Positions 28,406 through 47,079 of a stretch of 64,000 bases of DNA are shown here, piece after piece. The notes beneath the pieces were generated by a model that saw only the letters and a list, made by a program, of their open reading frames with translations, was not told where the DNA came from and made no database searches. The DNA is from an uncultured Acidobacteriota bacterium (lineage in GTDB: Bacteria > Acidobacteriota > UBA6911), in the NCBI GenBank assembly GCA_963843575.1, contig CAWJKZ010000016.1, forward strand, positions 32,001-96,000. The letters run 5' to 3'. How positions within the stretch are numbered: position 1 is the stretch's first letter; each line of letters begins with the position of its first letter. The translations under genes were made by a program, and so were the position numbers.

Positions 28406-29401
28406 CTACGCCCAGAAGATCTCGGGAATCCGGGTCGGCCCGTCCAGGTGCCCGACCAGCCTCTTCTCCAGCGGGGCCCGCGACGGGTCGAGGTTGCGCC
28501 GCAACTGCTCGACCTCGGCCGGCTTGAGCGGTTCGAAGCCCCGGGCGATATCGGTGTTCTGGTCGATGTGGTCGACGGCGGGCATGCCGATGACCGCCGC
28601 CGTGACGGGCAACCCCATCGAGTAGCGCAACAGCAGGCCGATGTCCGCCTTGCCGGGCTCGTGGCCAACCAGGAACTCCTGCCCCGCCACCTTCATCGCA
28701 ATGACACCCAGCTTCTTCCTGTTGGCGGCCGGGAGGGCGAGCTCCTCGAAACGCCCGTTGCGGCTGGCGTTGAGCGCCATCTGGGCACAGTTCAGGTCGT
28801 GCCGCTCAATCGCCTGCGCGAGGACCGCGCCGTCGGTGTGGCTCGTCATCCCGATGAAGCGGGTGAGCTTCCGCTCGCGCGCCTCCAGCAACCCCTTCAG
28901 GGCCCCGTCGGGCGCCTCGATCTTCGCCAGGTCCTCCGCCTTGCCCAGGCTGTGGATGTGGACGAGGTCCACCTGGTCGACCTGCAGGCGCTTCAGGCTC
29001 GCCTCGAGCCTGCGCAGAAAACCGTCCCGCGTGCGGTCCGGGATCTTCGTGGCCAGAAACACCTCTTTGCGGCGCGACGGCATGAGCTTGCCGACCCTCG
29101 TCTCGCTCTCGCCGTCACCGTAGGAAAAAGCGGTGTCGACGTACGTGATGCCCAGGTCGATCCCACGGTTGAGCGCGGCCAGCGCCTTGTCCTCCTCCTT
29201 GTACATCAGCCAGCGGCTCCCGCAGCCAAAGGCGAGTATCGAGACGCTCACTCCCGTGGCCCCGAGCACACGGTGTGGGAGCGTTTTCTTGGCCGGCGGC
29301 TCGGCCCCGGCGTTCTGCGCGAAGACTTTCAACCCGGCGCCCGCGGCGGTGCCCGCGGCGACCCGTTCGAGGAACTCACGGCGAGACTGTTCTTTGGTCA
29401 T
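28406..29401 (-). CDS. Aldo/keto reductase with Tat signal
   Basis: SRREFL Tat motif; LGATGVSVSILAFG, ITYVDTAFSYG, VFLATK, SLKRLQVDQVDLVHIH, RFIGMTSH, IAMK. Confidence 0.88.
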   Translation of the reverse strand: MTKEQSRREFLERVAAGTAAGAGLKVFAQNAGAEPPAKKTLPHRVLGATGVSVSILAFGCGSRWLMYKEEDKALAALNRGIDLGITYVDTAFSYGDGESETRVGKLMPSRRKEVFLATKIPDRTRDGFLRRLEASLKRLQVDQVDLVHIHSLGKAEDLAKIEAPDGALKGLLEARERKLTRFIGMTSHTDGAVLAQAIERHDLNCAQMALNASRNGRFEELALPAANRKKLGVIAMKVAGQEFLVGHEPGKADIGLLLRYSMGLPVTAAVIGMPAVDHIDQNTDIARGFEPLKPAEVEQLRRNLDPSRAPLEKRLVGHLDGPTRIPEIFWA

Positions 29402-29584: not shown

Positions 29585-30784
29585 ATGCCCAGGATTTCAC
29601 GGCGCGATTTCATGATGACCGGCTCGGGGCTCGGGCTCCTGGCCGCGGCGGGCTCCGGAGGGTTCGGTTTCGCCGACCGGCTGGACGAGATACTCCGGTC
29701 GGCTCCGAAGGCGCGGTACTGGGTCTCGACCGCGTCCGGGCCCGGGCACTGCCGCGACTGTCACGCCGGGGAGGCGGCACCCGGGGCGAGCCCTCACGAC
29801 CGGCGCCGCACCATCGTCCGCTGTGGACTGTGCGCGCAGCGCTGCACGCTCGCGCCCGGAGAACGCGGCAAGTGCCGGGCCCGGATGAACGTGGCCGGCG
29901 ACCTGCGCAGCCTCGTCTACGGCCGGCCGGTGGCGGTCCACGTCGACCCGATCGAGAAGAAGCCGTTCTACCATTTCCTGCCGGGGTCGGCGGCGTTTTC
30001 CCTCGCCACGTCCGGGTGCCCGCTGCGCTGCAAGTTCTGTCAGAACTGGCAGATCTCGCAGTCCAGCCCCGAGGACCACGACGCGCCCTTTACCCCACCG
30101 GGGGCGGTCGTCGAAAACGCCGCCGCCCGCAAGGCGCCGGTCATCGCCTTCACCTACAACGAACCCACCGTGTTCGCCGAGTACCTGACCGACATCGCGC
30201 GGCGGGCGCGGCCGCAAGGGATCCGCAGCGTCATGGTCAGCTGCGGCTTTGCGCAACCCGAGCCGCTCGCCGAGATCTGCGGCGTCCTCGACGCGATCAA
30301 GATCGACCTGAAGGGGCTCGGCGAGGCTTTCTACCGCGACGTGTGCGGTGCCGAACTTCAACCCGTGCTCCGCACCATCAAGCAGATCGCCTCGACACGG
30401 AGCGTCCACCTCGAGATTGTCAATCTCGTGGTCCCCACTCTCAACGATTCCGAGCCCATGCTTCGGGCGCTCGCGGAGTGGGTCATGGGGGAGGTCGGCC
30501 CCGACGTCCCCCTCCACTTCACGCGGTTCCACCCGGACTACCAGCTCCTGAACCTCCCGCCCACGCCCGTCTCCACGCTGGAGCGCGCCCGGGAGATCGC
30601 GCTCGCCCGGGGGCTCCGCTACGTCTTCGTGGGGAACGTGCCCGATCACCCCGGCAACCACACCTACTGCCCGGGCTGTGGGAAGATCGTTATCAGGAGA
30701 AACGCTTTCTTCGTGCTCGAGATGCACCTGAAGGGCGGCAAATGCCGGTTCTGCGGCAGGGCCGTCGCAGGAGTCTGGTCCTGA
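29585..30784 (+). CDS. amrS: AmmeMemoRadiSam system radical SAM enzyme with Tat signal and extra CxxCH
   Basis: CGLCAQRC...GKC, DPIEKKPFYHFLPG, GCPLRCKFCQNWQISQ, AFTYNEP, IDLKG, PLHFTRFHPDY, YVFVGNV, C-terminal CPGC/CRFC. N-terminus SRRDFM; CRDCH at residues 56-60. Confidence 0.92.
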   Translation: MPRISRRDFMMTGSGLGLLAAAGSGGFGFADRLDEILRSAPKARYWVSTASGPGHCRDCHAGEAAPGASPHDRRRTIVRCGLCAQRCTLAPGERGKCRARMNVAGDLRSLVYGRPVAVHVDPIEKKPFYHFLPGSAAFSLATSGCPLRCKFCQNWQISQSSPEDHDAPFTPPGAVVENAAARKAPVIAFTYNEPTVFAEYLTDIARRARPQGIRSVMVSCGFAQPEPLAEICGVLDAIKIDLKGLGEAFYRDVCGAELQPVLRTIKQIASTRSVHLEIVNLVVPTLNDSEPMLRALAEWVMGEVGPDVPLHFTRFHPDYQLLNLPPTPVSTLERAREIALARGLRYVFVGNVPDHPGNHTYCPGCGKIVIRRNAFFVLEMHLKGGKCRFCGRAVAGVWS

Positions 30785-30821
30785 GGGCCCCGCCGGCCGC
30801 CGGCGCACAGAAAGGAAACGC

Positions 30822-32351
30822 ATGTCTGGCACCCCCCGAGCCCCGCTCGCCATCCTGATGTTGGCCTGTGCGGCCTGCGCCGCCGGCGAAGCCCCCGGCA
30901 CGCGCCCGCCCGCGGTCGCGGGCCAGTTCTACCCGGCCGAGCCCGAGCGCCTGAGGCTGGCGATCGAGCAGTTCATGAAGAGCGCCGTCGCGCCCCTGCC
31001 CGGCGAAAAGCCGGTGGCGCTCGTGGTCCCGCATGCCGGTTACGTGTACTGCGGGCAGATCTGCGCGGACGCCTACCGGCAGGTCGCGGGACAGAACTTC
31101 GACGTGGTCGCGATCCTGGGGACCAACCACACGGCCGGGGGCTTCCGCGGCATCTCCGTCTACGCGCACGGCGCCTTCCGGACCCCGCTCGGAGACGCTT
31201 TGGTCGACGAGGAAGTTGCGGCGCGGCTGCTGGCCGCGGACCGGGACTGCACGTCCGGCGGGCAGCCTCACGTCCGCGAGCACTCGGTCGAGGTGCAGGT
31301 CCCGTTCGTGCAGGCGCTCTTCCCGAAGGCCAGGATCGTACCTGTCGTCGTCGGCGAACCGGACCTCGACATGTGCTCCAAGTTCGGCGGGGCGCTGGCC
31401 GTGTCCCTGAAAGGCCGCCGGGCGCTCGTCGTGGCCAGCTCGGACCTGTCCCACTACCCCGCGTACGACGATGCGGCGAGCGCCGACCGGCAGATCCTGG
31501 AAGCGATGGCAGGCCTGTCCCCGCGCAAGCTCGACGAGGTCGCGCGCGCACTGCGCACCAGCGGGGTGGCGAACCTCGAAGTCGGGGCGTGCGGCGAGGC
31601 GCCTGTCCTTGCGGCGATGAGCGCCGCGAAGGCGCTGGGCGCCCGCCGCGGCGTCGTGCTGAGCTACGCCAACTCGGGGGATACGCTCCTGGGCGACCGC
31701 TCCCGCGTGGTTGGCTATGGCGCCGTCCTGTACAGCGCCAACGAGGGCGGCCCGGACGTGCGCATCCTGAAACCCGCGCCGCCCCCGGCGGCCCAACCCG
31801 GCCCCCTGCCCGAATCGGATCGCAGGGCGCTCCTCGTTTTTGCCCGCGAGGCCATCCGGCGCTACCTCACCACCCAGACGCTCCCGCTCGCCCGGGGCTT
31901 CAGCCCGACCCTGTCGTGCCCCCGGGGTGCCTTCGTGACCCTGAAGAAAGGCGGGGTGTTGCGCGGCTGCATCGGCCACATCCCGCCGGAAACCCCGCTG
32001 GCCCAGACCGTCGGGGCCATGGCCGCGCAGGCGGCCTTCAACGACCCGAGGTTCCCGCCGCTCACCGCGGGCGAGTTCGCCCAGATCCAGATCGAGATCT
32101 CCGCCCTGACGCCTCCGCACCCGATCCGCGACCCCGACGAGATCGAGCTCGGCCGCGACGGAGTGATCCTGTCCAAAGAGGGGAAATCGGCGGTTTTCCT
32201 CCCCCAGGTCGCCACCGAGAACAAGTGGGGGCTCGACGAGATGCTCGACAACCTCTGCCGCAAGGCCGGCCTGCGGCCGGGGAGCTGGATGCAGGGCGCC
32301 CGCTTCTCCGTGTTCCAGGCGGAGGTTTTCAGCGAAGCGGACCTCCCGTGA
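30822..32351 (+). CDS. amrB: AmmeMemoRadiSam system protein B (Memo) fused to protein A (AMMECR1), with N-terminal signal peptide
   Basis: RPPAVAGQFYP, PHAGYVYCG, GTNH, EHSVEVQVPF, ASSDLSHY, ACG, YANSGD, VVGY (Memo); GAFVTL..LRGCIG, DPRFPPL, IEISALT, GRDGVI, FLPQVA, LCRKAG (AMMECR1). Confidence 0.92.
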   Translation: MSGTPRAPLAILMLACAACAAGEAPGTRPPAVAGQFYPAEPERLRLAIEQFMKSAVAPLPGEKPVALVVPHAGYVYCGQICADAYRQVAGQNFDVVAILGTNHTAGGFRGISVYAHGAFRTPLGDALVDEEVAARLLAADRDCTSGGQPHVREHSVEVQVPFVQALFPKARIVPVVVGEPDLDMCSKFGGALAVSLKGRRALVVASSDLSHYPAYDDAASADRQILEAMAGLSPRKLDEVARALRTSGVANLEVGACGEAPVLAAMSAAKALGARRGVVLSYANSGDTLLGDRSRVVGYGAVLYSANEGGPDVRILKPAPPPAAQPGPLPESDRRALLVFAREAIRRYLTTQTLPLARGFSPTLSCPRGAFVTLKKGGVLRGCIGHIPPETPLAQTVGAMAAQAAFNDPRFPPLTAGEFAQIQIEISALTPPHPIRDPDEIELGRDGVILSKEGKSAVFLPQVATENKWGLDEMLDNLCRKAGLRPGSWMQGARFSVFQAEVFSEADLP

Positions 32352-32392
32352 ATTTTGGAAGCCGTGCAAGTTGACCTGCACGGCCCACGCCC

Positions 32393-32608
32393 AAAACATG
32401 TGGGTCCGGGCTTCAGCCCGGACGCAGTTTGCGGTCGCTGTTGAGTGCAGACTTCATCACATTGGGCAGATCAAAAGATGTCCGGGCTGAAGCCCGGACC
32501 CACTTGTTTTACGGGCAGGGCGGGTGGTTTAACCGTTGGATGGCCTCTTCAATGCAGGCTTCATTACCTACGGCAGATCAAAAGGCGTCCGGGCTGAAGC
32601 CCGGGCCC
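32393..32608. repeat. REP family 1 cluster (GTGG-GTCCGGGC-TTCA-GCCCGGAC): inverted doublet plus third copy
   Basis: Copies at 32393-32423 (+), 32480-32510 (-) and 32587-32608 (-); degenerate IS-like end TTAACCGTTGGATGGCCTC at 32529-32547. Confidence 0.85.
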
Positions 32609-34774
32609 GCGAGCTTTGCGTTCGCGGTTGGCCTGGTCTCGATCCTCGCGCAGGTCGTGATCCTGCGCGAACTGAGCGTCGCTCTCTACGGCGTCGAACT
32701 AATCTACGTCCTCGCCCTCGGCGCGTGGCTCCTCGCGTCGGCCTCCGGTGCGCTGCTCGGCCGCTCCGTCCCGCGTGCGGCCGGGCGCCCGCTTTTGCCC
32801 GCCACTTTCGTCCTGCTCGCCGCGGCACTGCCGGCCGACATTGCCCTGGCGCGCTCGGTGCGCCTCATGTTCTCCGGGGTGCCGGGAGCCTTCCTTCCTT
32901 TTGCGGCGCAGCTGGCCGCGCTGGCTCTCGTCGTGTTTCCTGTGGCCCTTCCTCTCGGGGCCCTGTTCCAGTGGGCCGCGGCGGCAGGCATCTCCGGCGG
33001 CGGCACGCTGGCGCGCGCGTATGCGGTGGAGAGCCTCGGGGGCGTGTGCGGCGGCCTGCTCGCCACCGTGCTCCTCGCCCTGGGGGCGGGCAACCTGGCG
33101 TCGGCCCTGGTGTGCGCCCTGCTGTCGGTGGCGGCGGGCCAAATCCACCTCCCGGGGAACCGTTTGAGGCTCGGCTGGCCCAATCCCGTTTCGATGGCGG
33201 TGGCGGGCGTGCTTGCCCTGGGGCTGTGGTTCTCGGACGCGCTGGACTTCCGCAGCACGGCCTGGACCCACCCGAACCTGGTGGAGATCCGCGACTCGCC
33301 TTACGGCCGCGTCACCGTCGAGCAGCTCGGGGGCGAGTTGTCGGTGTTTGAGAACGACGCGCTCTCGTTCAACACCGAGGGGACGGAGGCCGAGGAGTTC
33401 GTCCAGCTCGCCGCCCTGCAGCACCCGGCGCCCGAATCCGTCCTCATCCTCGGCGGGGGTATTGAAGGCCTCGTGCGCGAGATCCTGTCACACCGGCCCC
33501 GGAGGGTGGTGGACGTGGAGCTGAACCCGGTCCTGGAGCGAGTCGTGCGGTCGAGGCTCCCGTCAGGGCTTCGCAAGGCCGAACTCGACCCCGCGGTGGA
33601 GTTCAGGCTCGAGGATCCGCGCGCCTACCTGCGGCACGAGGGGCCGCCCTTCGACCTCATCCTGGTCGGCATGCCCGAGCCCTCCTCCGGGCAGGCAAAC
33701 CGTTTCTACACGCGCGAGTTCTTCGCGCAGTGCCGCGCCCGCATGACCCCGGAAGGCGTGCTCGCCCTCCGGCTGGCTTCGTCCGAGAACCTCTGGACAC
33801 CGCAGATCGCGCAGCGGGCCGGCAGCATCCACGGCGCCCTGCGCTCCGTCTTCCGGGACGTGGTCGTGGTCCCGGGATCGACGAACGTCCTGGCGGCTTC
33901 CATGACCGCGCTCTGCCGCGATCCGGAGGTCCTCGCCGCCCGGCTCGCCGAGCGCAGGCTGTCGCTGCGGCTCGTTTCTCCCCCCTACCTCCGCTACGTG
34001 TTCACCAACGACCGCTTCGGCGAGGTCGCCGGCCTCCTGGAGCAAAGCTCCGCCCCGGTCAACAGCGATGCCCGACCGGTCTGCTATCAGTACACGGCCA
34101 TGATCTGGTTGTCGAAGTTCTTCCCGAGCTTCGCCGCCATGCAAGCGCGCGGTTTCCCCCCCTGGTGGTCGGCGGTGCTCTGGTCGGCGGGCGTCCTGGC
34201 GCTCGCGGGCCTCGTGGCAGCCTCCCGCAGGCCCCGGGCCCGGCGGCTGCTGCTCGTCGGCTCTGCCGGGCTGGCCGGTACGGTGCTCGAGACGGTGCTC
34301 ATGCTGCGCTACCAGGTCACCAGCGGGGTGCTCTACCAGAACCTCGGTGTCCTGCTGATGAGCTTCATGGCGGGACTCTGGGCGGGTGCGGCGGCGGTCG
34401 ACACGCCCCTGGCCCGCGCCGCCGGCCGGGACGCGTGGCGGGCGCTGCTGAGCCTCTCGGCCCTTCTGCTGCCGGCGCTGGTCTGGTGGCAGATCCACGC
34501 CGGGGTGGAGGCCGGGCTCGTCGCCATCGGCGCCGAGCTCGCGGCCTCCGGCTTTCTCGTGGCCGGCTTCTTCGCCTACGCGAGCCTGGAGCAGGGTGTC
34601 GACCAGGCCGAGCTGGCCGCGCCGCTGTATGCCGCGGACCTCGCCGGCGGATGCCTCGGCACCCTGGCGGCCAGCCTGGTGATGATCCCCGTCCTCGGCC
34701 TCGCCCAGACCGCCGCCTGGCTCGCCGGCTTGGCCGTTCTCATGTCGCTCTGGACGCGCAGGCTCTCGAGATAA
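32552..34774 (+). CDS. Polytopic membrane protein with spermidine-synthase-like SAM-binding domain (fused MFS/spermidine synthase type)
   Basis: About 7 N-terminal TM helices (QVVILREL..YGVEL, AYAVESLGG), then DSPYGRV, VLILGGGIEG, VDVELNP, DPRAYL, NRFYTREFF, VNSDARP, then about 6 TM helices (LYAADLAGG). Start uncertain (32540 or 32552). Confidence 0.8.
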   Translation: MQASLPTADQKASGLKPGPASFAFAVGLVSILAQVVILRELSVALYGVELIYVLALGAWLLASASGALLGRSVPRAAGRPLLPATFVLLAAALPADIALARSVRLMFSGVPGAFLPFAAQLAALALVVFPVALPLGALFQWAAAAGISGGGTLARAYAVESLGGVCGGLLATVLLALGAGNLASALVCALLSVAAGQIHLPGNRLRLGWPNPVSMAVAGVLALGLWFSDALDFRSTAWTHPNLVEIRDSPYGRVTVEQLGGELSVFENDALSFNTEGTEAEEFVQLAALQHPAPESVLILGGGIEGLVREILSHRPRRVVDVELNPVLERVVRSRLPSGLRKAELDPAVEFRLEDPRAYLRHEGPPFDLILVGMPEPSSGQANRFYTREFFAQCRARMTPEGVLALRLASSENLWTPQIAQRAGSIHGALRSVFRDVVVVPGSTNVLAASMTALCRDPEVLAARLAERRLSLRLVSPPYLRYVFTNDRFGEVAGLLEQSSAPVNSDARPVCYQYTAMIWLSKFFPSFAAMQARGFPPWWSAVLWSAGVLALAGLVAASRRPRARRLLLVGSAGLAGTVLETVLMLRYQVTSGVLYQNLGVLLMSFMAGLWAGAAAVDTPLARAAGRDAWRALLSLSALLLPALVWWQIHAGVEAGLVAIGAELAASGFLVAGFFAYASLEQGVDQAELAAPLYAADLAGGCLGTLAASLVMIPVLGLAQTAAWLAGLAVLMSLWTRRLSR

Positions 34775-34779
34775 GCCGT

Positions 34780-34958
34780 AAAACAAGTGGGTCCGGGCTT
34801 CAGCCCGGACGTCTTTTGATCTGATCTATGTGGCGCCGGGCGCACGTTACAGCGGCCGCAAACTGCGTCCGGGCTGAAAGCCCGGACCCACGTGTGTCTT
34901 GTTTGGATCGGGCAGATCAACCGTTGGACAGCCTCTCGAACCCGGACCCACTTGTTTT
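34780..34958. repeat. REP family 1 cluster: inverted doublet plus half-REP joined to an IS-like end
   Basis: REPs at 34780-34810 and 34867-34891; TCAACCGTTGGACAGCCTC (34917-34935) abuts TCGAACCCGGACCCACTTGTTTT. Confidence 0.85.
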
Positions 34959-34986
34959 ACGTTCCGGTGATGTAATCTTATCCGTT

Positions 34987-35715
34987 ATGCCGATTCTGTT
35001 CGCGGAGGGGTTGAGCAAGACCTACACGACGGGCGAGGCGGTTGTCGAAGCGGTTCGGGGTGTCGACTTGTCGCTCGACCCCGGGGACTTCGCGGCCGTC
35101 ATGGGTCCGTCGGGTTGCGGAAAATCCACGCTCCTGCACCTGTGCGGGGCCATGGACCGGCCCAGCGCGGGCCGACTCGAGCTCGACGGCACGCCTGTAG
35201 CGGGACTGGATGAGGAGTCCCTGACGGCGCTGCGGCGGCGCCGGGTCGGTTTCGTCTTTCAGTTTTTCAACCTCCTCCCAACCCTGACGGTGGGCGAAAA
35301 CATCGGGCTGCCCCTGCTGCTGGCCGGCGCGCCGCCGGCCCTGGCGGACGGGCGGGCCGCGCGGGTCGCCGAGCTGGTCGGCCTGGGCCACCGGCTGCGA
35401 CACTTCCCCCAGCAGCTCTCCGGGGGCGAGATGCAGCGGGCGGCGGTCGCGCGGGCGATCGTACACGAACCTGCCCTGGTCGTCGCGGACGAGCCGACCG
35501 GCAACCTGGACTCCGAGAACGGCGCTCGCGTGCTTGATCTCCTGGTGCGGCTGAACGCGGAGACGGCCGTGACGATCCTGCTGGCCACGCACGACCCTGC
35601 GATCGCCGCGGCCGCCCACCGGGTCCTGCGGATGAAGGACGGGCGCATCGAGAGCGTCGAGGAGCGGAGCGTCCTGCCGGCGGGGAGGCGGATCACACCC
35701 GTTGCGCCTCTTTAG
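34987..35715 (+). CDS. ABC transporter ATP-binding protein (LolD/MacB type)
   Basis: [39 protein letters not shown]; probable ATG 34987. Confidence 0.92.
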
Positions 35716-38272
35716 GCTGTTCATCCTGAGGCACCTCGGCAGAGAGCGGGCGCGTTCGGTCAGCGCCGTGTTCGGGTTTGCCCTGGGGATCGCCGTCATC
35801 GTCGCAATCCGGATGGCCAACGCCAGCTCGCTGCGCGGCTTCGAGTCGGCGCTCGACCTCATCTCAGGCAAGACCTCTCTCGAAATCTCGGCGCCCGGCG
35901 GCGTGGACGAGACGCGGATACCGGAACTCTCCTGGCTGGGTGACTATGGGACCGTGAGCCCGGTGGTGGAGGCAGACGCCCGGGTGCGTGCGGCCTCGGG
36001 CGGCGAAGTCGTGCGCGTCCTCGGGGTCGACATCCTCAGGGACAGGACGCTGCGCGACTATCGCCTGCTCGACTTCGGGGGAGGGCGGCAGCCCGACAGC
36101 CGCGAGTTCCTGGAGCTGCTCGTCGACCCGCATTCCATTATTCTGACGGCGCGATTCGCGGCGCGTTTCGGGCTCGCGGCGGGCCAGGAGGTGGAGATCA
36201 CGGCCGGCGACCGCGCGCAGAGGTTCACGGTCCGCGGCCTGCTGCGGGACACCGGGCCGGCCCAGGCGCTCGACGGCAACGTCGCCCTGATGGACGTCGC
36301 CGCCGCCCAGTGGGTGTTCGCGTCGCTCGGGCGGCTGACCCGGATCGACGTGCGCCTCAAGGACGGGATCGGCGTCGAGGAGGCGGAGCGGCGGATCGCC
36401 CCGCGGCTGCCGGCCGGGATGTCGGCAGACCGCCCCGCCCGCCGCGGGCGCGAGGTCGAAAAGATGCTGGCGGCCTTTCACTTCAACCTCTCCGCGCTCT
36501 CGTACGTTTCCCTGCTGGTCGGCCTGTTCATGATCTACAACACGGTTTCGGTCTCGGTGGCGGCGCGCCGCCAGGAGATCGGCAGCCTGAGGGCCCTCGG
36601 CGCCAGCCGCCGCACCGTGCTGCGCCTCTTTCTGGGCGAAGCGGCCGTTCTGGCCGTGGCCGGGTGCGGTCTCGGACTGCTGATTGCGCCGTACCTCGCG
36701 CGCGGCGCCGTCGCGCTCACCTCCACGACCGTCTCGGTTCTGTACCGCGGGGTGGTGTCGCCGCCGCCGGGGCTCGGCCCCTGGGACGCGGTCCTGGCCT
36801 TTTCCGTCGGCCTCCCGCTCGCGCTCTTCTCGGCGTCGGTCCCGGCGCTGGAGGCAGCCCGGGTCCCCCCGGCCGACTCTGTCCGGGGCGCCGACAGGCT
36901 CGAGACGCGACACCGCCTGCGGCTGCGCCACCTGTCCGTTCCGGCGCTGCTGCTGCTGGCCGGGTGGGAGCTGGCGCGACTGGGGCCGGTCGGCGGGCTG
37001 CCGGTCTTCGGCTTCTTCTCGGCGCTCTTTATCGTGTTTGGCGGCGCCGCCCTGACGCCGCTCGTCCTGTTCCTGCTCGCGCGGGCGGGCCGCCGGCCGC
37101 TGACGCGCCTCCTGAAGGTCGAGGGGATGCTCGCCCACGCCAACCTCTCCGGTTCCGTCCCCCGCCTGTCGGTGTCGGTGGCGGCACTCTCGCTGAGCCT
37201 TTCGATGATGGTCGCGATCGCCGTCATGGTGGGGAGTTTCCGGGAGACGGTGATTTACTGGGTGGGGCAGACGCTGCGGGCGGACCTCTACCTCGGCCCC
37301 GCGCTGCACGGAGCGGGCCGCCCGGCCGCGCTCTCCCCGGAAGTCGTGCGGACGGCCGCCGCGGACCCGGCGGTCGAGGCCGTCGACCCCTTTCGGCGCG
37401 AGGACGCTCCCTTCGCCGGCGGCACCGTCACGCTCGGCTGCAGCGACTTCGGCGTGCTCCTGGCGCGGGGGGGCCTCCTGTTCAAGAGCCCGCGCGACGG
37501 CCGCCGCGCCGCGCTCGCAGCCGCCGGCCACGAGGGTGTGGTCGTCTCCGAGAGTTTCTCCCTCAGGCACGGCTACGCCGACGGAGACTGGGTCGAGCTG
37601 CCGGCCCCCCGGGGGCGCGTCCGGCTCCGGATCGCCGCCGTATACTACGACTACTCGAGCGACCGCGGCGTCGTCCTGATGGACCGGAGCACCTGGTTGC
37701 GCCACTTCGGCGACGCCTCGCCCACGGGGATGGGGCTCTACCTGAAGGCGGGTTCCGACCCGGCGGCGGCGCGCTCGCGCATCCTCGGCGCCCTCGGCGA
37801 CAACCACCGCGTCTTCCTCAACACCAACGAGTCGCTCCGCCGCGAGGTGCTGCGCATCTTCGACAGCACGTTCGCGGTGACCTGGGCCCTGGAGGCCATC
37901 GCCATCTTCGTCGCGATCCTCGGGGTCTCCTCCACGCTCCTCACCCTGACCTACGAGCGGCGGCGGGACGTCGCCATGCTCCGGCTGATCGGCGCCGGCA
38001 GGCGGCAGATCACCAGAATGATCGTGACCGAGGCGGGCCTCCTCGGGGCCGCGAGCCAGGCCGTCGGCGTCTCCGTCGGGCTGCTGCTGTCGCTGCTGCT
38101 GATCTATGTCGTCAACGTGCAAAGCTTCGGCTGGACGATCCAGTTCCACCTGCCGCGCGCCTTCCTGATGCAGATGACGGCCGGGATCCTCGCGGCGACC
38201 GCCCTGGCTGGCCTCTACCCCGCGCGCCGCGCCTGCGGGTTCCGGTTGAGCGACCAGGTCGCGGAGGAGTGA
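35702..38272 (+). CDS. FtsX/MacB-like ABC permease (two periplasmic domains)
   Basis: [66 protein letters not shown]. Confidence 0.9.
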
Positions 38273-38277
38273 GGCCC

Positions 38278-39345
38278 ATGGCCCTTATACGCAACCTGGC
38301 CTGCGCGGCGCTCGCGTGCGCAGCGCTCGCGTCCAGCTTCGACGCCGCGACCTGGCGCCAGGCCCAGCCCGGCTACGCCTTCCAGTTCCCGCTCGACCAC
38401 CGGAGCCACCCCGAGTACAGGATCGAGTGGTGGTACTACACGGGCAACCTTCGCGCCGGGGACGGGCGCCGCTTCGGCTACCAGCTGACCTTTTTCCGCG
38501 TCGGCGTGGATTACAGCCCGGCGAACCCGTCGCGCTGGGCCGTGCGCGACCTGTTCATGGCGCACCTGGCCGTGAGCGACATCGACGGGGGGCGGTTCCG
38601 TTTCTCCGAGCTGCTCAACCGGGCCGGCCCGGGTTGGGCCGGCGCCGATGCGGAAACCTACCGCGTGTGGAACGAGGGCTGGGAGGCGCGGCTCGACCCC
38701 GCAGGCGACCACCGGCTGCGCGCCTCCGCCGACGGCATCGGCGTCGACCTGACGCTTGCTCCGGGCAAACCCCCAGTGCTGCACGGCGAGCGCGGCTACA
38801 GCCGCAAAGGGCCGTCCGCGGGCAATGCGTCGGAATACTACTCTCTGACCAGGATGCCGACCCGCGGCCAGCTGACTGTCGACGGCAGGCAGTTCGACGT
38901 GCAGGGCGCAAGCTGGATGGACCACGAGTTCGGCACCAGCTTTCTCGAAGGCGGCCAGACCGGCTGGGACTGGTTTTCCCTCCAGCTGGAGGACGGCCGC
39001 GACCTGATGCTGTTCCAGCTGCGCCTCGCCGACGGCTCGCGGAGCCCGTACTCGAGCGGGACGCTCGTGGACTCCTCGGGCGGCGCGTCGCCGCTGCGCG
39101 CCGACGAGTTCGAACTCCTGCCCGGCCGTGCCTGGAAATCGCCCGCCAGCGGCTACAGCTACCCGCTCGAGTGGCTCGTGCGGATCCCAGGGAAGAACCT
39201 CCATCTCACGGTCCGCGCCGCGCTCGACGATCAGGAGCTGCGCACCACCCGCTCCACCGGCGTGACCTACTACGAGGGCGCCGTCACCGCCCAGCACGCC
39301 CTCGGCTACCTGGAAATGACCAGGGGACGGACCCCAGGAAACTAA
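38278..39345 (+). CDS. AttH/CrtC-like lipocalin-fold protein (carotenoid 1,2-hydratase family)
   Basis: ATG 38278, signal peptide, [65 protein letters not shown]. The last residues come from a repeat. Confidence 0.85.
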
Positions 39346-39437: not shown

Positions 39438-39707
39438 GTCCGGGCTGAAGCCCGGACCCACTTGCTTTGCGTGCAGGGCGGGTGAGTTTGTGGGCGCTGT
39501 CGAGTGAAACTGTCGCTGAGTAGGGCAGACCTAAAGACGTCCGGGCTGAAGAGGCTGTCCAACGGTTGAGGTTCAATCCGGACGAACTGAAGTAATCTGG
39601 CGTGCGGCGCCTCGGCGCTACGCCGAATTGCGAGATGCGACCCTGCGACCTCGGCCTTTGGCGGCGCCGAGCCGCCGCACTTCCACAATCAACCGTTGGA
39701 CGGCGCA
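39438..39707. repeat. Nested repeat cluster: REP-1, half REP-1, then an element with GAGGCTGTCCAACGGTTGA ends containing a REP-2 doublet
   Basis: REP-1 at 39438-39468; GTCCGGGCTGAA|GAGGCTGTCCAACGGTTGA at 39539-39569; REP-2 doublet GTGCGGCGCCTCGGCGC...GGCGCCGAGCCGCCGCAC at 39602-39680; TCAACCGTTGGACGGC at 39689-39704. Confidence 0.8.
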
Positions 39708-46869: not shown

Positions 46870-47053
46870 AAAACAAGTGGGTCCGGGCTTCAGAGGCTGT
46901 CCAACAGTTGATTGTGGAGAGCGGCGCCTCGGCGCCACGCCGAATTGCGAGATGCGACCCTGCGACCTCGGCCTTTGGTGGCGCCGAGCCGCCGCACTCC
47001 ATTATTCCATCTGCCCTACACAGCGACCGCTAACGGCGTCCGGGCTGAAGCCC
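46870..47053. repeat. Nested repeat cluster: half REP-1, IS-like end, REP-2 doublet, half REP-1
   Basis: AAAACAAGTGGGTCCGGGCTTCA|GAGGCTGTCCAACAGTTGA at 46870-46911; REP-2 doublet 46915-47001 with the same spacer as 39620-39660; GTCCGGGCTGAAGCCC at 47038-47053. Confidence 0.8.
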
Positions 47054-47079
47054 TGCTCCGCTTGACGTGAAGGTTCGGG

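Follow-up and report, generated by a model that had tools for sequence, protein, structure and literature searches.

AmmeMemoRadiSam systems, in which a radical S-adenosylmethionine (SAM) enzyme (AmrS, TIGR04337) accompanies a Memo protein (AmrB, TIGR04336) and an AMMECR1 protein (AmrA, TIGR04335), are uncharacterised in function, and their proteins are usually assumed to be soluble, cytoplasmic and signal-free. Radical SAM enzymes as a whole are treated as strictly cytoplasmic, since they need SAM, iron-sulphur (Fe-S) assembly and a strong reductant. Here we describe a locus in a 64,000-nucleotide stretch of DNA (the window) from an uncultured Acidobacteriota bacterium (assembly GCA_963843575.1, contig CAWJKZ010000016.1, positions 32,001 to 96,000) that has the same three adjacent families, all above their cut-offs and with the cysteine triad intact, but that departs from the canonical system in three respects: AmrS has a putative signal of the twin-arginine translocation (Tat) type as well as a CxxCH insertion, AmrB and AmrA form a single protein that begins with a predicted export signal, and a fourth component is linked to them, a transporter-like 14-helix membrane protein with a spermidine synthase (SpeE)-like domain that we call SpeMem. 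The putatively exported module is a variant of the known, uncharacterised AmmeMemoRadiSam system, of which the window provides one more member. We lean towards reading it as a widespread three-gene envelope module whose radical SAM chemistry would take place on the outside of the cytoplasmic membrane.

Fe-S proteins exported by the Tat pathway include hydrogenase small subunits, Rieske proteins and NapG-type ferredoxins, which leave the cytoplasm after cofactor insertion. AmrS has a similar S-R-R-x-F-L signal, but unlike these proteins it would need SAM and a low-potential donor after export, and no radical SAM enzyme is described as a Tat substrate in the full-text literature searched. In the HXS antiphage system, radical SAM enzymes serve a periplasmic function (Nat Commun 2026, PMC13128918); in that report, periplasmic localisation is given only for the cleaved effector HxsA, and the radical SAM proteins HxsB and HxsC were undetected, their localisation unassigned. 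In the locus described here, by contrast, a putative export signal is on the radical SAM enzyme itself. The gene neighbourhood of AMMECR1, radical SAM enzyme and dioxygenase is noted by Iyer et al. 2007 (PMC2034487), and Kaur et al. 2020 (PMC7159879) cite "Memo-Ammecr1 systems" from Burroughs et al. 2019. In the full-text literature searched, neither an exported AmrS nor its SpeE-like partner is described, and there was nothing relevant on a fused major facilitator superfamily (MFS)/spermidine synthase. The 2019 paper of Burroughs et al. (J Biol Chem), which may bear on the novelty of the arrangement and may mention membrane-linked contexts, reportedly linked Memo gene contexts to aliphatic isoprenoid modification.

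The initial annotation had placed three genes in this region, and all of them were found where it put them, on the + strand and in the same direction, in DNA of ~69% G+C around 29585-34774. The features are as follows.

29585..30784, + strand: amrS, AmmeMemoRadiSam radical SAM enzyme, 399 aa (TIGR04337, PF04055, N-terminal extension)
29585..29674, + strand: putative Tat-type signal of AmrS, approximately residues 1-30 (SRRDFM, then a hydrophobic stretch ending GFGFA)
29750..29764, + strand: CxxCH (C56, C59, H60) in the AmrS insertion, invariant in a 30-sequence alignment (A1)
30017..30040, + strand: radical SAM cluster motif C145-x3-C149-x2-C152, three Cys invariant
30822..32351, + strand: amrB-amrA fusion, 509 aa (TIGR04336, TIGR04335, PF01875, PF01871)
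30822..30887, + strand: putative signal peptide of AmrB-AmrA (MSGTPRAPLAILMLACAACAAG); the Memo model begins only at residue 28
32552..34774, + strand: SpeMem, 740 aa, 14-helix membrane protein (AlphaFold2 model, internal repeat)
33278..34141, + strand: SpeE-like domain of SpeMem, residues 243-530 counted from 32552 (PF01564, Foldseek 1uir)
33782..33799, + strand: loop S-E412-N413-L-W-T of the SpeE-like domain (conservation, complex model)
32404..32606, no strand: three palindromes (GTCCGGGCTKMAGCCCGG) resembling repetitive extragenic palindromes (REP-like) between amrBA and the SpeMem gene, the third overlapping the first SpeMem codons

AmrS scored 366.7 bits against TIGR04337 (cut-off 220) over residues 76-398 and 53.4 bits against PF04055. 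Because the TIGR04337 match begins at residue 76, the first ~75 residues constitute an N-terminal extension, and the usual assumption that AmmeMemoRadiSam proteins lack targeting signals, which is no part of the curated definition, does not hold here, both AmrS and AmrB-AmrA having signal-like extensions before the start of the model match. The AmrS N-terminus, MPRISRRDFMMTGSGLGLLAAAG, was identical to that read in the initial annotation. Residues 1-75 comprise MPRISRRDFMM, a mildly hydrophobic stretch to GFGFA, a conserved A-P-K-A-R-Y-W strand and the C56-x-x-C59-H60 insertion, and eight of these positions (R6, R7, P41, A43, W46, C56, C59 and H60) are invariant in 30 aligned AmrS sequences. 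In the same alignment C145, C149 and C152 are invariant and are followed by an invariant Q153, N154 and W155, and AmrS has additional N- and C-terminal Cys motifs. Among solved structures, the AmrS model came closest to pyruvate formate-lyase activating enzyme (3cb8, with a Foldseek E of 7.4e-15 and, on the target, a TM-score of 0.80; also 3c8f and 8fo0) and other glycyl-radical activases, and the runners-up to TIGR04337 in NCBIfam were likewise activases, every one far under its cut-off (TIGR02493, 50 bits against 231.75). AmrS differs from these cytoplasmic enzymes in its extra Cys motifs.

We examined the conservation of the putative Tat signal with a regular expression for RR-x-hydrophobic in the first 60 residues of the 120 best AmrS homologues and found the motif in 115. 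Of the five misses, one (P0041) carries SRREF and the other four start within or past the hydrophobic stretch. The S-R-R-x-F motif and hydrophobic stretch reported in the initial annotation were thus borne out, with R6 and R7 among the invariant positions, and the window sequence, S-R-R-D-F-M-M plus TGSGLGLLAAAGSGGFGFA, is conserved and can be compared with the Tat consensus S/T-R-R-x-F-L-K. We also sorted the N-termini of AmrS in 80 related loci, taken from one-genome-per-species contigs of many phyla, using a stricter classifier than an initial one that had taken KR-type, Sec-like N-termini as Tat. This gave 58 RR-Tat signals, 4 T-K-R-x-F-L variants, 9 Sec-like signals, 7 sequences flagged as signal-less and 2 truncated ones. 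Among the seven flagged, L022 has RRAFL and a weak hydrophobic stretch, so that its AmrS is probably Tat-type, and L056 is ambiguous. The genome encodes tatC on contig C13 (TIGR00945, 211.1 bits, cut-off 132.7).

In a wider family survey that took the 150 cluster representatives (50% identity) nearest to AmrS and assigned signals by script, 46 were called Tat- or Sec-like and 104 had no signal; at least two of the 46 calls are wrong (P0282 and P0291, in which the first Cys motif lies near residue 20 and leaves no room for a signal). Judged by these calls, a large minority of the family consists of AmrS proteins with a signal, so that the module is common rather than a speciality of this genome. 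Sixteen of the 150 are single chains of 900-1150 aa, AmrS-AMMECR1-Memo, with no signal (e.g., P0271, P0294, P0296, P0305 and P0308), and two triple fusions (P0266 and P0301) open with a hydrophobic segment that has all three Amr domains behind it. As a separate observation, the AmrS domain also occurs at the C-terminus of multi-helix proteins that do not match SpeMem (P0242, P0252, P0253, P0255 and P0256).

The CxxCH motif sits in an insertion of ~30 residues that separates the ARYW strand from the first Cys motif. It is present in 34 of the 58 RR-Tat loci, is lost in three close relatives (L018, L025 and L030) and was not found in the other signal-bearing AmrS clades among the 80 loci. AlphaFold2 (AF2) modelled the CxxCH loop at low confidence, with a predicted local distance difference test (pLDDT) score of <50 for the signal region and for residues 51-55 and 63-73. 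The motif may bind haem c, Zn or Fe; cytochrome c maturation genes (PF01578) occur in the genome, but the putative AmrS signal is of the Tat, not the Sec, type.

The second gene, which is preceded by MSGTPRAPLAILMLACAACAAGE and an AAAGGA Shine-Dalgarno sequence, matched the Memo and AMMECR1 domains over almost their full length, with 251.8 bits against TIGR04336 (cut-off 26) at residues 28-303 and 169.8 bits against TIGR04335 (cut-off 99) at residues 336-503. Among the 80 related loci, 47 have a Memo match, nearly always as a fusion with AMMECR1. A signal-like hydrophobic N-terminus is present in 43 of 45 evaluable fusions. Of the 45, 13 have a strict lipobox by a PROSITE-type pattern, while P-x-G-C or C-C variants are found in many of the rest; the window protein has L-A-C and A-A-C, but its R6 is too close to the Cys for the strict pattern to match. 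These results uphold the earlier identification of an AmrB(Memo)-AmrA(AMMECR1) fusion with a Sec or lipoprotein-type signal, and the signal is possibly that of a lipoprotein.

The third gene was initially taken to start at TTG 32429 and to encode a protein of ~13 transmembrane helices, and both points need correction. Homologues begin only a few residues before the first helix and the three REP-like palindromes lie within 32404-32606, so that the start is most likely ATG 32552 or 32540, and the AF2 model (38-sequence alignment; pLDDT 91.8, predicted template-modelling score 0.92) has 14 helices, arranged as seven helices, a domain of ~290 residues and seven more helices. Helices 1-6 and 9-14 are homologous and oriented alike (hhalign probability 97.6%, E 3.3e-12, 174 columns). 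As modelled, SpeMem thus has two homologous 6-helix bundles, which is the MFS plan, and its SpeE-like domain follows helix 7 and precedes helix 8. A Foldseek search with the full model returned SpeE matches only, leaving the helical part unresolved against solved transporters. In the closest relative of named source (P0123, 82% identity, 1.6-Mb contig), the record gives the SpeMem-like gene a product of 838 aa with both PF01564 and ABC_tran, which may be a read-through or frameshift into a downstream ATP-binding cassette (ABC) ATPase.

The spermidine synthase-like domain noted in the initial annotation was recovered both by profile (PF01564, 47.9 bits, cut-off 22.9) and by structure, being the full spermidine synthase fold with its N-terminal beta domain (Foldseek 1uir, E 2.3e-13, ~280 aligned columns). 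With soluble SpeE (1uir and 3anx) it has in common the fold, the GGG motif and the acidic residues that bind ribose and adenine, here E323 and D355. The N-terminal helices and domain also align, over residues 79-450, to the membrane-fused spermidine synthases (PRK03612, "polyamine aminopropyltransferase"), relatives that are presumed to use cytoplasmic decarboxylated SAM. SpeMem differs from these enzymes in adding a second homologous 6-helix bundle after the domain, in being tied to AmrS and in scoring far below the aminopropyltransferase equivalogs (60.9 bits against 249.55 for TIGR00417; 102.2 against 472 for PRK03612). Furthermore, the D-L-T-D-P of Thermus SpeE (1uir; D-x-x-D-P in general) aligns with G-M-P-E-P and Y-H-E aligns with A-E-E, placing Gly and Ala at the catalytic Asp and Tyr positions. 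With its retained ligand residues and these substitutions, the domain looks like an adenosyl-binding module that has lost aminopropyl transfer.

The same substitutions bear on the possibility that SpeMem is itself an envelope-modifying transferase, with an adenosyl-sulfonium compound as the donor of an aminopropyl- or aminocarboxypropyl-type group and a lipid or other envelope component as the acceptor, and with AmrS, AmrB and AmrA making or remodelling the acceptor or product and SpeMem supplying no SAM. The complete fold and the conserved acidic ribose- and adenine-binding residues would suit such an enzyme, as would the conservation of polar residues within the helices (R39, E40, E49, E160 and D696) and the reported link of Memo contexts to isoprenoid modification. 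However, the catalytic positions are replaced, the equivalog scores are all far sub-threshold and an adenosyl donor would still be required outside the cytoplasm, and we consider this explanation decidedly improbable.

To define which genes belong with AmrS, we clustered all open reading frames (ORFs) within 7 kb of it in 81 neighbourhoods. The recurrent families were just AmrS itself, AmrB-AmrA and SpeMem; any other occurred in 6 loci or fewer, and two further ORF clusters merely reflected these genes read antisense or out of frame. SpeMem adjoins AmrS in 43 of the 80 related loci, in many phyla, AmrB-AmrA or SpeMem lies near AmrS in 35 of 47 well-flanked loci, and the gene order AmrS, AmrB-AmrA, SpeMem is held in most loci of the window's clade. 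In a distant Tat-type AmrS clade (45-47% identity; L048, L054, L082 and L045), AmrS abuts or overlaps SpeMem and AmrB-AmrA is absent from the locus; the AmrS-SpeMem pair may be the tighter unit.

The association also held at the level of whole genomes. A SpeMem profile search of 151 genomes of the window's phylum gave 56 matches in 55 genomes at 253.9 bits or more, mostly covering nearly the whole model and otherwise cut by contig ends, whereas the remaining matches, at 168 bits or less, covered the first bundle and domain only. With AmrS called as a TIGR04337 match at E 1e-40 or better, it was present in 55 of the 55 SpeMem genomes and in 54 of the 96 others (a count that includes G024, a genome flagged as unpublished), for a one-sided Fisher p of 7e-11 that is overstated because related genomes are not independent. 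Among the matches listed, amrS and the SpeMem gene lie at most 10 kb apart in at least 24 of the 55 genomes. The initial annotation had asked whether Tat-AmrS, signal-bearing AmrBA and the SpeE-like gene occur together beyond chance, and these counts indicate that AmrS and SpeMem do. They also contradict the alternative that the SpeMem gene is a chance neighbour of the amr genes in the window. The ~200 bases with three REP-like hairpins that separate amrBA from the SpeMem gene would be in keeping with a chance arrangement, but the recurrence of SpeMem beside AmrS across phyla, the 55 of 55 genomes and the score of the predicted complex (0.90 against 0.02 for the best control) make it hardly credible. 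We note that the linkage and co-occurrence, like the family memberships, the signal conservation, the internal repeat and the lost SpeE catalytic residues, are results of sequence analysis.

The initial annotation had proposed modelling AmrS with the membrane protein. We predicted the complex of AmrS residues 36-399 with SpeMem residues 237-536 in three runs with three controls, and docking was predicted at the score just given, with at least 79% of contacts shared by the runs and a partner pLDDT of at least 88. Of 80 solved complexes, 58 attained the mark used for such scores, as did 2 of 110 mismatched pairs; this calibration is only rough because our own alignments were used. We know of no solved complex of the AmrS/SpeE-domain kind, so that the score is unlikely to come from the memory of the model. 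In the prediction, the SpeE-like domain docks on the active-site face of AmrS, with a loop reaching into the opening. The interface is conserved on both sides, the majority of the AmrS interface residues being invariant, and in the loop E412 is conserved in 35 and N413 in 32 of 38 SpeMem sequences. The lowest-error contacts of the loop are with AmrS residues 117, 119, 141, 154, 156, 157 and 191, including H119, A141, N154, Q156, I157 and Y191, by the cluster motif. We asked whether the E-N loop is lost wherever AmrS lacks a signal, but the agreement was only partial and the idea was rejected: L056 and L063 have lost the loop, L067 and L078 have kept it, and L077 has lost it yet keeps the RR motif.

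The position of this loop raises the possibility that AmrS is a maturase that modifies the S-E-N-L-W-T loop of SpeMem itself in one or a few turnovers, the SAM possibly being carried out enzyme-bound. The closest solved fold, 3cb8, is an activating enzyme in complex with AdoMet and a substrate peptide, the partner loop is predicted to occupy the position of that peptide, and the next NCBIfam matches of AmrS are activases, albeit all far sub-threshold. The near-invariant E412-N413 loop contacts AmrS around the cluster motif, and a one-shot reaction would need no periplasmic SAM pool. On the other hand, the loop has no conserved Gly such as the activases act on, and hence no classical glycyl-radical site, AmrB and AmrA would be left without a role, and the complex model cannot separate a substrate loop from a docking loop. 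In addition, the 54 of 96 sampled genomes above and the control genomes have AmmeMemoRadiSam without SpeMem, so that the general substrate of the family must be something else. We regard the maturase as the strongest rival to an envelope-located pathway, though an unlikely one.

Whether that pathway would operate outside the membrane depends on the orientation of SpeMem and on the signals. Mean K+R counts were 13.5 in the assigned inner loops and 3.8 in the outer ones, with inner exceeding outer in 38 of 38 sequences, which puts the N-terminus and the even loops inside. This count orients the two bundles, not the SpeE-like domain, whose side depends on helices 7 and 8 spanning the membrane. 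In the alignment rows printed, these two helices match the others in hydrophobicity, and in 13 more distant rows, which include the signal-less lineages, their K/R clusters lie solely on the flank shared with the inner loops. Since helices 7 and 8 are hydrophobic and have K/R only on the cytoplasmic flank, the SpeE-like domain is placed outside, an orientation that we consider very likely from these sequence features.

Several observations weigh against the envelope module. The Tat model TIGR01409 scored 12.6 bits on the AmrS N-terminus, below its cut-off of 16.7; apart from this sub-threshold match, Pfam and NCBIfam gave nothing useful for the N-terminus at E up to 10, and an NCBIfam scan of the 30 aligned AmrS sequences, of which 25 families were listed, gave no count for TIGR01409. 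Five loci have AmrS without any signal, three of them Nitrospirota-type (L063, L072 and L076) and two Omnitrophota (L067 and L078), with a stop codon a few codons upstream of the signal-less AmrS in L063; all five keep the SpeMem layout, and an exported-type, lipoprotein-like AmrB-AmrA adjoins in four (not L078). In nine other loci AmrS has a strongly hydrophobic Sec-type signal, so that the Fe-S enzyme would be exported unfolded. Some lineages, those with signal-less or Sec-type AmrS, are at odds with a purely periplasmic arrangement. In 31 of the 55 genomes the amrS-SpeMem pair was not seen within 10 kb, the genes being on different contigs or far apart, and in at least one nearly closed genome, G017, they are clearly unlinked. 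As for the transporter-like plan, no Pfam family matched either helical block of SpeMem at E up to 10, the protein scored 26.4 bits against NF037959, "fused MFS/spermidine synthase" (cut-off 40), and a score of 0.83 to Atlas neighbours in which 12-15% of the members are MFS_1 amounts to no more than a lead. The complex score is the model's own confidence and supports binding without showing it. Finally, we know of no SAM pool, Fe-S assembly or low-potential reductant in the periplasm.

Some of these points would be explained if the module worked on the cytoplasmic face, with the AmrS N-termini serving as tethers or Tat look-alikes, helices 7 and 8 not spanning and only AmrB-AmrA outside. The pairing of signal-less AmrS with the same membrane partner in five loci, the Sec-type signals in nine, which are hard to square with an Fe-S enzyme, and the low TIGR01409 score would all follow, and the charge statistic alone leaves the side of the domain unplaced. 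A fragment, P0374, moreover fuses AmrS straight to the N-terminus of a SpeMem-like protein, and the related membrane spermidine synthases are presumed to draw on the cytoplasm. However, the conservation of S-R-R-x-F-L far exceeds what a tether needs, Arg before a hydrophobic stretch predicts an N-in, C-out arrangement, and the hydrophobicity and one-sided K/R of helices 7 and 8 run counter to their not spanning. The export signals in 43 of 45 AmrB-AmrA fusions, and the placing of all three Amr domains behind one hydrophobic N-terminus in P0266 and P0301, are also at odds with it, and we judge a cytoplasmic-face module to be improbable.

Taken together, the export signals on both soluble proteins, the predicted outward domain and the predicted AmrS interface, which are independent lines of evidence, point to an envelope-located module, and each computational test that we ran (signal conservation, linkage, topology and the complex model) supported the envelope-located radical SAM pathway proposed in the initial annotation. 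From them we infer actual export, outward orientation, docking, any SAM transport and the kind of substrate, as follows. AmrS would fold in the cytoplasm with its Fe-S clusters and then be exported by Tat, and the AmrB-AmrA fusion would be exported by its Sec or lipoprotein signal. SpeMem would be an MFS-like protein of 6+6 helices in which two extra helices push the SpeE-like Rossmann domain to the outer face, where its adenosyl ligand would be SAM, decarboxylated SAM or a by-product and where it would no longer act as an aminopropyltransferase. AmrS would dock by its active-site opening onto this domain, and SpeMem would supply, hold or remove an adenosyl cofactor or substrate. That it supplies SAM is possible but doubtful. 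The module is consistent with a substrate that is a membrane lipid or envelope component, which would fit a lipoprotein partner. An extended version, in which many anaerobic and soil bacteria carry out periplasmic radical SAM chemistry, an MFS-like SAM exporter or by-product recoverer hands SAM to the Tat-exported AmrS through the outward, catalytically retired SpeE domain, and a CxxCH-bound haem is the point of electron entry in the window's clade, is speculative and, as a whole, rather unlikely.

The genome also contains a signal-less AmrB (278-aa frame) and AmrA (200-aa frame), unlinked, on contig C10, and a second, signal-less AmrS-like gene (C21:185060-186216; L003 1399-2555) that is broken across at least two frames (ORFs 1399-2028 and 2109-2555) and is either a pseudogene or an assembly error. 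Given these separate genes, the putatively exported cluster is an additional, specialised paralogous set.

The REP-like palindromes, GTCCGGGCT(G/T)(A/C)AGCCCGG, are intergenic and occur at 32404-32423, 32480-32499, 32587-32606, 34791-34810, 39438-39457 and 47038-47055, giving 11 strand-wise matches at six places with 0 expected; they score as terminator-like hairpins too. Three copies lie ahead of the SpeMem gene, one behind it and one after a CrtC-like gene. Divergent from amrS is an aldo/keto reductase gene (28406-29401, - strand; PF00248, 82.5 bits) whose product has a Tat signal, MTKEQSRREFLERVAAGTAAGAG (TIGR01409, 17.0 bits, cut-off 16.7), and would be an exported member of a usually NAD(P)H-dependent family; we rejected it as part of the module because it is not conserved across neighbourhoods. 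Downstream, at 34828-39345, is an AttFGH-like set comprising a LolD/MacB-like ABC ATPase, a permease of 856 aa in which the FtsX/MacB module occurs twice, and a CrtC/lipocalin protein (PF07143, PF17186) of exported type. These genes were likewise set aside, no such family occurring in more than 6 of the 81 neighbourhoods.

The trio of Memo, AMMECR1 and radical SAM proteins has human disease-linked homologues. If the reading that we favour is correct, a conserved exported form of the system with its own membrane partner would shift where radical SAM chemistry is sought, would mean that SAM has a way across the membrane and would narrow the substrate of the trio to the membrane or envelope, and the predicted interface between AmrS and the SpeE-like domain offers named residues for mutation.

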